From contig CBDDDZ010000005.1 in the NCBI GenBank assembly GCA_965226795.1, positions 1,824,001-1,888,000 on the forward strand: a stretch of DNA of 64,000 bases, read 5' to 3'. Shown piece by piece: positions 7,548 through 46,374 of the stretch. The notes below the pieces were generated by a model. That model did not search any database, was not told where the DNA came from, and was given only the letters and a program-made list of their open reading frames with translations. How positions within the stretch are numbered: the first letter of the stretch is position 1; each line of letters opens with the position of its first letter. The stretch comes from Candidatus Latescibacterota bacterium. Its GTDB lineage: Bacteria > Latescibacterota > UBA2968 > GCA-2709665. Made by a program: the position numbers and the translations under genes.

Positions 7548-7624
7548 GGGCCCTTAGCTCAGTTGGATAGAGCGGCGGACTCATAATCCGTTGGTCGCAG
7601 GTTCGAGTCCTGCAGGGCCCACCA
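7548..7624 (+). tRNA. tRNA with CAT anticodon, most likely tRNA-Ile2 (lysidine-modified)
   Basis: GGGCCCT/AGGGCCC acceptor stem, TAGCTCAGTTGG D arm, GCGGA-CTCATAA-TCCGT anticodon arm, GGTTCGAGTCC T arm, encoded ACCA end; resembles E. coli ileX rather than Met tRNAs. Confidence 0.93.
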
Positions 7625-41910: not shown

Positions 41911-42876
41911 ATGAAGGACAAGAAGAAAACATACCTGGATTTCGAGCGTCCCATTGCGGCACTGGATAAGAAAATCGAGGACCTCAAGACCCGCGCCGAA
42001 ACCGAAAACATCGACATGTCCGCCGAACTGTCCACCCTGGAAAAACGGCTTCAAAAGGTGGAAAAGGAAATCTACTCGGATATGAGCCGGTGGCAAATTT
42101 ACCAGGTGGCGGGGCACCCCCAGCGTCCGCACACATTGGATTACATTCGATTGATGCTCACCGACTTTATGGAACTCCACGGAGATCGGACCTATGGAGA
42201 CGATCCGGCAGTTGTGAGCGGCTTCGCCCGGCTCGACGGACAGCCCATCCTGGTCCTGGGTACGCAGAAAGGACGCAATACGAGGGAGAATATTCATCGA
42301 AACTTTGGCATGGCCCACCCGGAAGGATACAGAAAGGCCCTTCGCGTCATGAAACTCGCCGCAAAGTTCAAACGTCCCGTCCTCTGTCTGATCGATACGC
42401 CCGGGGCTTACCCGGGCATCGGATCGGAGGAACGGAGCGTTTCGGAAGCCATCGCCAGGAATCTCTTAGAGATTTTCCGGCTTCCGGTTCCCATCATTGT
42501 GGTCATTATCGGCGAGGGCGCAAGCGGCGGCGCACTTGGCATCGGCGTCGGCGACCGAATCCTGATGCTGGAAAACGCATGGTACTCTGTGATCAACCCC
42601 CAATCCTGTTCTCTGATTCTCTGGCGGAATCGGGACAAGAGAGAAGAAGCCGCCGAAGCGCTGAAGATTACCGCGCCGGACCTGGTCCCCTTCGGGATTG
42701 TCGATAGAATAGTACCTGAGCCCTTTGGCGGCGCTCACAGAGATCCTGTAACGGCAGGTCAAAACCTGAAGCGTATTTTACTGGACGAACTTCAGAATCT
42801 CCTGCGCACGCGCCCCGATATTCTTGTCCGCGAAAGGGTCGACAAATTCGGTCGGATGGGGGTATGGGACGAGTGA
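41911..42876 (+). CDS. accA: Acetyl-CoA carboxylase carboxyltransferase alpha subunit
   Basis: [52 protein letters not shown]. Confidence 0.97.
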
Positions 42877-42930: not shown

Positions 42931-42964
42931 CAAAAAATGGGCCACCGTTTGCCCATTTTTTTTG
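42931..42964 (+). terminator. Intrinsic terminator after accA
   Basis: CAAAAAATGGGC / GCCCATTTTTTTTG. Confidence 0.8.
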
Positions 42965-43176
42965 GACATTATGTCTCTCAACGACAGGCTTTCACTAACT
43001 TGCTGTTTACGTGGGGCGTTCCGAAATTTGATCAAATCTGAGGATATTTGTGAGAGAAAATGGCGCCCTGAACGCCGCCCGCAACACAGAAAAAAATTAT
43101 CACGTCCAGCCATTTGTGTACCAATATCTTATGCGCCAGTCACGAGAATTGTATCTCCTTTTGCTCAAATAATCCC

Positions 43177-43205
43177 TTGACGACACCGCAATCGGAGTAT
43201 ATATT
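43177..43205 (+). promoter_or_regulatory. sigma70-type promoter with no downstream protein gene
   Basis: TTGACG (43177-43182) - 17 nt - TATATT (43200-43205). Confidence 0.7.
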
Positions 43206-43211
43206 TCGAAA

Positions 43212-43785
43212 TGTTCTTACAAAGAGACCGCTTTCTCGTAAGATATTGTCTTGGCGTAAGTTGCATCATCGGATCCGTGCGTCTCTTTGTGGGTGTCCCG
43301 CGGAGAAAGAGCGCAGTTTCGAGACGGAACCGGGGGTTTGCCGCGGTTCTTTTGATGTCGGGCCGAGGCCCATAAAATACCTATTCGTGAGCATGGAAAT
43401 TGGGCGTCGGTGGTGCCTCGTTTTGCAGACAGTAAGCGGTTTAATGGGCGGTATGGTCGTAACTGGAATACGCTACGGCACTTGATCCATCCCGGGGGAA
43501 GTTGAAAGCACCGGCTCTTTGGTTGGCGGCAGTCTTATTGGGGGAGATAATACTGCCGGCTGCACCAATTAGATAGAACTGCTGCTTTTCTTCTTTCGCA
43601 TCGTGGCTCTGTGCCGACACGTTGCTCCTGTGCGTCCATCCGCCCATTTTAATTTGGCCCGAATGTACTCTCCTGGGTCAATTGGGCCGCTCTCGCCGCC
43701 GCCCGGCCCGCCAGACAGCGAGTTTCGCGCGTACTATACACCATTAGGGGGTATAGCACGTCTCGCGTTCACGCCCTTCCCCGCA
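43212..43785 (+). ncRNA. Candidate large structured non-coding RNA, family not recognised
   Basis: Own promoter; about 10 nested helices, many with G-U pairs that work only on the + strand (see findings); no credible long ORF; ends approximate. Confidence 0.6.
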
Positions 43786-43829
43786 GCCCTCCCGGTGACC
43801 GAACGCCGGTGCTTGTCCCGGTCGAGCCT

Positions 43830-46196
43830 TCACGGCTCCTCAAGCCATCCGCGCGCGTCAATACCCTGCTCATCGATGTGAATCTCTATGGCGCCCATCA
43901 GATCGGTCCGGTAAATTGGAATTCCCATTGCCTCGTAACGCTGGATCACCTCACGGGACGGATGGCGGAATTTATTTCTGATCCCGCACGAGACCGCGAC
44001 AAGTTCGGGACGCACGGCGCTCAGAAAGGGGGCGGTGGACGAGGTGCGGGATCCGTGGTGCGCCGCCTTCAGCACCTGGGCGTGAAGCCGGTCCCCCCAC
44101 CGCAGGAGATCCGAATCGGTCTCATGTTCGATGTCGCCCGTCAGCAAGACGGCGAAACCTCTGTACGTCAAACTGATTACCACGGAACCGTTGTTGAGGC
44201 CATGCGGGGCCCGGCCATTATGCGAGACATAGTCCGGTGTCGGGTGCAGAACCAGGGCGTCAACTTCACCCAGTCCCGCGAGCCGGTCCCCCGCCTCCAC
44301 TGCGGCATAACGTATGCCCTTCTCCTGGACCAGCGTTCGGATCCGACGGGCCGTCCAGGAATCGTAATGTTGTCCGGCGTCCAGGTACCAACCTACCTCT
44401 ACCCTCTCCAAAAGCGTCACGAATCCGCCGATGTGATCGCTGTGCGGGTGGGAAGCGACCACAGCGTCGATACGGTCAATCCCCTCCGCCTTCAGAAACG
44501 GGATCAGTACCCGTTCCCCCATATCGATGTTCACTGCACGCAAACCGCTGTCAACCAGCAGGGTCCTCCCATTCGGAAACCTCAGAAAGATTCCGTCACC
44601 CTGTCCCACGTCCAGTACCAGCATCCGCAAGCCCGCGGGACACAGCCAGATACCCGACCACACCCAGAGATTCGCCAGGGACAACGCCACGAGCACAAGC
44701 CGGCGGCCCCATCGGTGGGACCTCGCTCCGGGCAGGATCAGGAGCGCCGCACAGAGATACAATCCCAAAACAGTCCATCCGGGCCTTGGTACTTCGACGG
44801 CTGCCCATGCTGGCTCGGCGAACAAGGTCGCGGCCTGAATGGCGCCCTTCAAGACGATCCAATTCGCGCCATTCAACAACGCCGCGATCGGCGACGACAC
44901 GTGAAAAACGATCACCCCAAGCAGCCCCAGCGCGACGGCAGCCGCCATTAAGGGCACCACGACGAGATTGGCGAGCACCGAGACGACCGAGAGTAAACCA
45001 AAATAGATCAGAACAAAGGGCAGCGTGCCCACCTGCGCGGCCACCGACACCGCAAGTGGCGTCCATACCCATTGGCCCAGGCCACCCGCACGGCCGGCGG
45101 GCAGCCAGGCCCGGATCGGTCTATAGAATAGAAGGATACCCCCGGTGGCGGAGAATGAGAGTTGAAAGCCCACGTCGAACAGATCCTGAGGCCTGAATAT
45201 CAGAATGAGAAAGCCCGCCAGGCCGAGTGAATTCAGCCCCTCTCCCTGTGTGTTTCCCAGGCGACCCAAAATGGCAATCGCGCTCATCATGGAGGCTCTG
45301 ACCACCGACGGCGGCAACCCTGTAACCAGCGCATAGAGCAGCACGGCGCAAACGGTTGCCCAGGCTGTGGTTCTCCTGCCGCATCCGAACGCGCCGAGGC
45401 CGAAAAACACCACCGCGGCAATCAGACCCACGTGTAAGCCCGAAACAGCCAGCACGTGGTTGACGCCGGCCCGGGTGAACGCGGTACGCACGTCGTCGGG
45501 CACCCCGCGTTTCTCGCCCAGCAATATCCCGTTCAGCAGTCCTGCCGCTCCACCGGACAGGTTGCACGCCACGCCCCGGCGGACGCCCCTGCGCACGGGC
45601 AACACCACATACGTCCACAGCCACCCTCCCTTGCCCCTGTGGGTGTCCAGGATCTGTTCGCTCCTGGACACGGAACCCATTACGTGGATTCCCTTTCGTT
45701 CCAGAAACGCTCGGTAGTCGAACGCGCCCGGGTTTCTGGCCGGCTGCGGCCGGCGAAGGTGGATCCGCGCCACCAGACGGTCTCCGTAGTCCACGTCCGG
45801 CCGGAACTTTCGAACCCGCACGAGGACCGTTCCTCGAATCGAAAACACCGTATCCCGGAAGGTCACCCGCTCCGCAGCCAGCCTAAGACGCAATCCGTCT
45901 TCCATCCATTCGGGTTCCTCGGCGACGCGCCCGTCGAGCACCACCGGATCGTTTCGTCCGGCAAACCGGGCGATATGGTCTTCGGGCAACCATTCCATAA
46001 CGCTTTCATACCTCATTGCCCCCAATACTAACAAGAGGGCTCCCGGCCACGCGGAACTCCTTTTCCAGCGTACCAGTAACACGATCCAGAGTGCGAGGCC
46101 CCCGGTCCATAACGCCCAGACCGGTATCTCCCATCGATGTGCCACGAGCACCCCGGTAGCAAAAAACGCCGCAGATAGCAATGCCGGACGTCGCAT
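43830..46196 (-). CDS. comEC: DNA internalization competence protein ComEC/Rec2
   Basis: RNPGAFDY, HVLAVSGLHVG, SVVRA, GFQLSF, LDVGQGD, SHPHSDHIGG, LTGD, HHGS, FRHP. Confidence 0.95.
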   Translation of the reverse strand: MRRPALLSAAFFATGVLVAHRWEIPVWALWTGGLALWIVLLVRWKRSSAWPGALLLVLGAMRYESVMEWLPEDHIARFAGRNDPVVLDGRVAEEPEWMEDGLRLRLAAERVTFRDTVFSIRGTVLVRVRKFRPDVDYGDRLVARIHLRRPQPARNPGAFDYRAFLERKGIHVMGSVSRSEQILDTHRGKGGWLWTYVVLPVRRGVRRGVACNLSGGAAGLLNGILLGEKRGVPDDVRTAFTRAGVNHVLAVSGLHVGLIAAVVFFGLGAFGCGRRTTAWATVCAVLLYALVTGLPPSVVRASMMSAIAILGRLGNTQGEGLNSLGLAGFLILIFRPQDLFDVGFQLSFSATGGILLFYRPIRAWLPAGRAGGLGQWVWTPLAVSVAAQVGTLPFVLIYFGLLSVVSVLANLVVVPLMAAAVALGLLGVIVFHVSSPIAALLNGANWIVLKGAIQAATLFAEPAWAAVEVPRPGWTVLGLYLCAALLILPGARSHRWGRRLVLVALSLANLWVWSGIWLCPAGLRMLVLDVGQGDGIFLRFPNGRTLLVDSGLRAVNIDMGERVLIPFLKAEGIDRIDAVVASHPHSDHIGGFVTLLERVEVGWYLDAGQHYDSWTARRIRTLVQEKGIRYAAVEAGDRLAGLGEVDALVLHPTPDYVSHNGRAPHGLNNGSVVISLTYRGFAVLLTGDIEHETDSDLLRWGDRLHAQVLKAAHHGSRTSSTAPFLSAVRPELVAVSCGIRNKFRHPSREVIQRYEAMGIPIYRTDLMGAIEIHIDEQGIDARGWLEEP

Positions 46197-46374
46197 CACC
46201 GTTCCCTCCGTTTCGCGCCCATATCCCTGCACGCAGCGGCAAATCACGTGCCACTTCAGATGACGCCGGATCTTCCGGTTTTCGCGCTGCCATATGGAAC
46301 GATCCGTTCAACAGGGGCCTCAAAACGTTCACCGTGCCCCGTCCCCGGGGCAGAACGCCTCCTGGAACAATCAA

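Follow-up and report, generated by a model that had tools for sequence, protein, structure and literature searches.

Introduction

6S RNA is described as an unbranched molecule with many bulges (PMC8876501), and a two-sided bubble is given as its defining feature (PMC8876501, PMC9130861). Its synteny is presented as not universal (PMC9130861). The 6S-1 RNA of Bacillus subtilis is made with an 11-nt leader (PMC10578484), and Bacteroides thetaiotaomicron has a validated 6S RNA (PMC7366714). In Corynebacterium, a genus described as being without 6S RNA, the 516-nt CoRP RNA is cut to pieces of 318 and 198 nt and binds RNA polymerase as core and as holoenzyme (PMC11077062). The same report proposed that every bacterium has one abundant RNA-polymerase-binding RNA, and that some of these RNAs escape 6S and Ms1 searches.

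The window, that is, the whole 64,000-nt stretch of DNA analysed here, comes from a Candidatus Latescibacterota bacterium (genome G000; G000:C5:1824001-1888000). The original prediction was an unrecognised structured RNA with its own promoter on the + strand, folded between accA and comEC as a single nested structure of ~570 nt. Conservation, covariation, RNA contigs and the lack of an Rfam match upheld the RNA and its promoter. The single nested fold was not upheld: the conserved part was a rod of ~200 nt, and the outer helices and the 3' part were not conserved.

Results

Locus and promoter

The gap between accA (41911..42876, + strand; NCBIfam TIGR00513, 438.8 bits, above the cut-off) and its convergent downstream neighbour comEC (43830..46247, - strand; TIGR00361, 298.9 bits, above the cut-off) contains a genuine stand-alone non-coding RNA gene, in which a promoter (43177-43205) and a leader of varying length precede a ~200-nt rod (43443-43652) that ends in a U-run. 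The promoter proposed after accA, TTGACG-17-TATATT (43177..43205, + strand), was located by a scan that found 4 promoter-like sites against 1.0 expected in shuffles; transcription was predicted to start near 43212. A matching sigma-70-type promoter lay upstream of the rod in 49 of 49 homologs. The hairpin with flanking A and T runs at 42932..42962 was confirmed as a likely accA terminator by its sequence, but was absent from the output of the terminator scan. The gap held no credible protein gene, as predicted: none of the three tested ORFs had an NCBIfam match, and ORFs from shared start columns had unrelated lengths across 14 congeners, except for a 17-codon TTG frame inside the rod (9/14).

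An upstream box (43119..43131, + strand), a putative IHF site, lay 57-59 nt above the -35 box with one mismatch to WATCAANNNNTTR, the IHF consensus. The box pattern was matched at this spacing above the promoter in 45 of 49 homologs, and not in the copy at 43119-43131. Of 168 phylum genomes, 53 had the box-plus-promoter pattern, mostly at the rod locus, and the reversed control had 0 matches. Unrelated genes were also preceded by this layout, at 71 of 80 metagenome loci; these loci (L320-L397) had the IHF-like box, 43-46 nt, -35 and -10 ahead of mRNAs and tRNAs, lacked the rod, and lay on many unrelated, AT-rich contigs. The layout may be a general promoter design or chance. Second loci with the pattern were observed at G038:C1:3418192 and G050:C4:184316 and also in G028, G032 and G039, and were kept within genera g9 and g6.

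Fold, conservation and covariation

On either strand, the region 43210-43790 (581 nt) had a better fold than every one of 100 shuffles (+ strand, z -3.06; - strand, z -4.50), in agreement with the predicted structure. Within it, z on the + strand was -5.07 for the rod, -2.36 for the leader and -0.73 for the tail (43653-43785); on the - strand, it was -5.89 for the rod and -1.82 for the tail. The rod (43443..43652, + strand) was unbranched, ~200 nt in length (170-210 nt in homologs), and closed by a G-C-rich stem of 43443-43451 with 43640-43648.

All 11 nested helices of the original prediction were complementary, 10 of them fully in register and one at 12 of 18 positions due to a bulge. Six rod helices were paired in 87-99% of cells in 13 congeners, whereas the four outer helices (43320/43759, 43359/43704, 43408/43694 and 43435/43684) were paired in 30-38% of cells and had 1.0, 1.8, 4.4 and 0.0 expected ensemble pairs, respectively. 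The RNA is therefore not a 570-nt nested fold, and the selected element is the smaller rod of ~200 nt. The 5' stem (43216-43228/43281-43293) was upheld in part: it was paired in 73% of cells, but only 2.0 pairs were expected in this copy.

Covariation across homologs was found as anticipated. With an unfitted MAFFT alignment of 26 rows, 82.5% of cells were paired (35-46% in slid controls), and compensatory, both-sided change occurred in 46 of 79 rod pairs, a count reached by 0 of 500 shuffles. A model-fitted alignment of 47, biased toward structure, had 62 of 77 compensatory pairs. Covariation counts are inflated by relatedness; the swaps nevertheless separated whole genera.

G-U cells exceeded A-C cells in the alignment (227 vs 74) and in 9 rows not used to derive the structure (88 vs 50). 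Assignment to the + strand was thus favoured by the G-U excess and by the direction of promoter and U-run, but not by single-sequence z, which was lower on the minus strand and is no proof of strand.

The 5' leader (43212..43442, + strand; 231 nt in this copy) varied from 28 to 572 nt in homologs and was conserved at the genus level only (66-67% identity in 13 congeners). Given this range, the leader is expendable, and probably dispensable or trimmed. The likely 3' end, judged from sequence, was the U-run after the closing stem (43647..43655, + strand); family-2 homologs added a separate terminator hairpin behind the rod. The spacer at 43653..43785 lay outside the conserved RNA by identity, deletions and z, and is possibly a comEC 3' region. 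Its positions 43653-43779 had 36% identity within the genus and were largely deleted in several species; the last ~130 nt of the proposed RNA were not conserved.

Apical loop and bulges

The apical loop (YYGGGGGAGA; 43538..43547, + strand) carried GGGGGAGA at the apex in 49 of 49 homologs and in both of two held-out metagenome copies. About 25 pairs down from the apex, group folds left 4-9 nt unpaired as a bulge on the 3' side (43569..43574, + strand). A second 3'-side bulge (43595..43602, + strand) had the consensus motif R(A/G)UGCA(U/C)C, degenerate in this copy; its UGCA-like core followed the apical loop by 55-61 nt in 47 of 49 homologs. The bases flanking the 4-nt core covaried and could pair in 47 of 49 (A-U, G-C, G-U, U-A), the G000 copy being one exception. 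A mini-hairpin of 2 pairs, the outer of which failed in 17 of 49, fits this bulge better than a kissing dimer. A kissing dimer through a palindromic bulge was considered and rejected as the best reading, because the UACG, UGCG and UUCA variants kept the closing pairs and broke the palindrome.

In genus g8, the 5' arm was fully paired opposite a 10-nt bulge. Possible pairing between loop and leader was noticed by eye in family 2 only. Since the stems vary while the length, the loop and the loop-to-bulge distance are held, the rod suggests shape recognition by a protein complex.

Distribution

A BLAST search recovered the region from all 14 congeners (73-79% identity) and from none of 26 other relatives. 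In 30 loci read onward from accA, 28 had this promoter and 27 a rod that carried the same apical loop. A covariance model (R1) built from 26 rod loci had matches in 51 of the 132 genomes of the class: G000 itself, 19 of the 21 family 1 genomes, all 31 of family 2, and none of the 3 in family f3 or the 76 in f4. It also matched none of 36 genomes from other classes. The rod was thus present in 51 of the 53 genomes of the order, with one copy each except in G051 (two). The misses within the order were G018 (80% complete) and G021 (also without accA or a clear comEC). In the sister family f3, both accA loci read by hand had promoter, leader, a shorter rod and the same loop at the same locus. A metagenome scan with the promoter pattern gave 107 stretches, of which 80 were examined and 9 had the rod; two of these rods (96.6 and 80 bits) represent new lineages outside the training set.

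A second model (R2) had 0 matches in 41 f4 genomes and two in a wider search of 39, one true (G041) and one a 26-nt match inside a coding region (G142); the R2 genome search missed its training sequence G043, so that blanks outside the group are weak and no proof of absence. The loop pattern had 79 matches in G021 and three f4 genomes, and none of the 24 loci scored was a rod; 79 accA loci of other lineages also gave none, and no rod match was obtained in IMG/VR (one pattern), plasmids or phages.

The rod was kept without accA upstream (genus g2), with a response regulator downstream (G017) and with neither neighbour (L095), and its survival through these neighbour changes argues for a trans-acting RNA. 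The smallest unit, at L095, was box, promoter, 28 nt, rod and terminator.

Several genomes had unusual arrangements. The accA-linked copy of G036 (L041:2445-3056, G036:C232) broke off just before the apical loop, at a contig end; the unrelated sequence at the break resembles an insertion-element end. The second, divergent copy of G036 (L095:3517-3692) had its own box, promoter, 28-nt leader and terminator, and lay behind a sulfatase gene. The two similar copies of G051 (L099, L100; 10% contamination) lay near both ends of one contig and represent either a duplication or an assembly artefact. G021 (94% complete) yielded neither accA nor a clear comEC, and neither the rod nor the promoter pattern, through either block loss or an assembly gap. 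In G068 (L146), the first ~400 nt after accA held four or five tandem copies of an intergenic ~88-nt unit.

Searches for known RNAs

The proposed Rfam check returned no match for the RNA in Rfam 15. At the gathering score the window gave only a tRNA, and at E 10 the region gave one chance match. The loci of 15 relatives gave none, and the core alone and six further loci gave sub-threshold matches only. The tRNA (7548-7624) had a CAT anticodon and could be Ile2 rather than Met. RNase P and tmRNA were excluded as predicted, with no Rfam match at the locus and both present elsewhere in G000, as was large SRP RNA; the rod matched none of the three. The rod is a well-supported, lineage-restricted non-coding RNA family absent from Rfam 15. 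A literature search that covered few subscription journals found no description of this RNA and nothing linking 6S RNA to Latescibacter; non-coding RNA combined with Latescibacter gave only unrelated work.

The rod resembled 6S RNA in being unbranched and covarying, with a length of 170-210 nt and closing and apical stems (~160-200 nt for 6S), and its length and form agree with the account of 6S in PMC8876501. A two-sided central bubble, with at least 10 open nt in both arms, was predicted in 11 of 49 rods against 6 of 7 6S controls. All 11 belonged to two genera (g6, g10) with competing folds and are ambiguous; the remainder had 0 of 38. Median open runs were 4 and 8 nt in rods and 29 and 20 nt in 6S controls.

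Rfam model RF00013 gave no match at E 10 in 5 of 5 genomes, none on the 216-nt core and none in 41 relatives. Its matches within the phylum were confined to distant families (6 of 151 genomes), and these six genomes had no rod match (families f9 0/6, f12 0/1). A model built from six same-phylum 6S RNAs found a further 6S in G134 and none in 25 class genomes. A same-phylum 6S model (R3), narrow in that it gave E. coli 6S only 12.7 bits, had no match across a full rod in 13 rod loci. RF01685 matched 0 of 26 and none of its controls, so that this blank carries no weight. As RF00013 was silent in the Bacteroides thetaiotaomicron control, the missing 6S is weak evidence. Family f4 was without rod (0/76; 0/41) and without 6S by these searches.

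The rod sat at accA-comEC and not at the neighbours typical of 6S (zapA, ygfA, rny). A mini-6S at zapA-rny was rejected, since nothing but a hairpin of varying length, similar to a terminator, lay in the gaps there. RNase Y and zapA were each encoded twice in G000 (G000:C5:706543-708584 and 802067-803599, 957254-957499), with both RNase Y genes scoring above the family cut-off; 42 of the 45 genomes searched had at least 2 zapA matches. In families f9, f12 and f7 of the phylum (L103-L108, L285), probable 6S RNAs scored below the Rfam cut-off; five of six adjoined tRNA genes and not zapA-rny.

Presence in RNA libraries

Ten RNA runs of three studies held at least half of the sampled words; the visibly labelled runs were sponge metagenomes. 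Four runs, chosen for containing the stretch, were compared as contigs, from RNA libraries only, and RNA contigs covered the leader in all four. In run X4, a contig covering 43231-43722 had a depth of 24.6, and three flanking contigs 2.3-2.9. Gap-spanning contigs had depths of 134 in X1 and 476 in X7, with flanks at 2.5-7.4 and 4-12.7, respectively. A single contig (43240-43546) was the only cover in X12. Stretches lacking RNA cover in X4 and X12 were given no weight. The locus contig was thus 8-60 times as deep as flanking contigs in three runs. The contigs demonstrate presence in RNA libraries, leader included, and hint at abundance; strand, ends and level lie beyond contig depth. Of the transcript expected from ~43212 to ~43785 on the + strand, the contigs show cover in the gap.

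Discussion

Proposed mechanism

The sigma-70-type promoter would give a precursor of variable length, the 3' ~200 nt of which would fold into a stable imperfect rod, with the leader trimmed or dispensable if processing occurs. The rod may act in trans, bound by a protein machine that would read two fixed points, the invariant G-rich apical loop and the 3' bulge about four helical turns below it. RNA polymerase, as core or holoenzyme, would be the most likely partner, sequestered by the rod.

Judged by analogy, the rod may be an RNA-polymerase-binding RNA of the 6S/Ms1/CoRP kind, a functional counterpart of these; the reading leads the others and is still tentative, somewhat short of an even chance. 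The rod's length and copy number, its apparent abundance, the missing 6S and the Ms1 and CoRP precedents make RNA polymerase the best single guess. The lack of a central bubble, the lack of similarity to 6S models, the invariant apical loop, the weak evidence for missing 6S and the limits of contig depth stand against it. The proposed extension of 6S RNA agreed with size, copy number and missing 6S, but not with the central bubble or 6S similarity. "6S-like" is a lead; the rod is not classed as 6S, because the bubble was mostly unpredicted (in none of G000's family) and no 6S model scored the rod. The broader proposition, that the rod forms a new abundant class of housekeeping RNA, a bubble-less rod that would engage RNA polymerase or another core machine through the G-loop and a measured 3' bulge and would have replaced 6S in two orders of Latescibacterota, is a doubtful one.

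Alternative readings

It is rather unlikely that the rod instead serves another RNA-binding protein, or the 30S subunit, as decoy or scaffold, using the Shine-Dalgarno-like GGGGGAGA loop at a fixed distance from the bulge. The loop was invariant (49/49) while the stems covaried, the loop-to-bulge distance was held at 55-61 nt in 47 of 49, and by inspection the 16S 3' tail of G000 offers the loop 7 possible pairs, of which 3 are G-U. However, no start codon was conserved behind the loop, CsrA was not found in G000 (0/1 genome), and the single GGA loop differs from Csr/Rsm sponges.

Pairing of the G-rich loop with C/U-rich target RNAs, as by a base-pairing small RNA, is unlikely. Seeds usually take the form of an exposed, invariant loop carried by a stable scaffold, and G000 had 196 exact TCTCCCCC sites. 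However, no complement stood out (best -14 kcal/mol, with many ties) when 53 stable RNAs of G000 were compared, made up of 50 tRNA/tmRNA calls plus RNase P, tmRNA and SRP; the rRNA scan, at its cut-off, had no site within the true operon; and the conserved length and distant bulge exceed what a seed needs.

That the rod works in cis, whether as an outsized terminator, by stabilising a 3' end or by controlling the convergent comEC transcript in antisense, is very unlikely. U-runs follow the closing stem, most copies abut the comEC 3' end, and the rod also folded well on the minus strand (z -5.89); against these, the promoter was its own in 49 of 49, the rod was kept with other neighbours, family 2 has a separate terminator behind it, there was no overlap with comEC coding sequence, and the G-U excess favoured +. 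That the RNA encodes a small peptide, its G-rich loop holding the ribosome-binding site sequestered, is hardly credible and already disfavoured: GGGGGAG is Shine-Dalgarno-like, with AUG, GUG or UUG 8 nt behind it in several genera, and the TTG frame was common to 9 of 14 congeners, but there was no start codon there in G000's genus or in g8, g9 and g10, single-base indels in the 3' arm within genera shifted the frame, and changes were compensatory for pairing.

Under the preferred reading, the rod is a concrete candidate for an RNA-polymerase-binding RNA in an uncultured phylum, and a bubble-less rod offers a direct test of the need for open-promoter mimicry. The rod is short and amenable to in vitro synthesis, and 49 natural variants of it are aligned. 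With another partner, it would still be a well-supported non-coding RNA family outside Rfam 15.

Comparison with known systems

The rod is like Csr/Rsm sponges (CsrB, RsmY/Z) in having GGA in a hairpin loop and an IHF-like box upstream. Csr/Rsm sponge RNAs carry multiple GGA hairpins, whereas the rod has one GGA loop; CsrA was not found in G000 (0/1 genome, 96% complete), with a match for the control in 3 of 14.

The rod shares with 6S RNA (ssrS; RF00013, RF01685) a ~200-nt unbranched imperfect form, 5'-3' closure, a single copy, its own promoter and a leader, and its 3' bulge lies about where the 6S bubble would be. Unlike 6S, it has no two-sided bubble, no model match and an invariant apical loop, its leader reaches 572 nt, and it is not at zapA-rny. 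The apical loop of 6S is variable, and the strongest conservation of the rod is in its apical loop. In function, 6S binds the sigma-70 holoenzyme and templates pRNA, and Ms1 and CoRP bind core RNA polymerase. The same-phylum 6S candidates, unlike the rod, start at their promoter and adjoin tRNA genes.

Ms1, as described in PMC9130861, replaces 6S in a lineage, has conserved synteny and is abundant, in which the rod resembles it. Unlike the rod, Ms1 occurs in Actinobacteria, is ~300 nt long and has additional terminal hairpins as well as a central bubble; the rod had no Rfam match, and none of the Ms1 traits (~300 nt, central bubble, short terminal hairpins, HAD-hydrolase synteny) was found in it. 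CoRP, compared by description only, differs in that its binding to RNA polymerase was shown, its homologs are confined to Corynebacterium and it lies between tRNA genes. The rod is like CoRP in belonging to a lineage in which 6S was not found, and in being an intergenic, lineage-restricted RNA with a primary form of ~500 nt and a 3' piece of ~200 nt.
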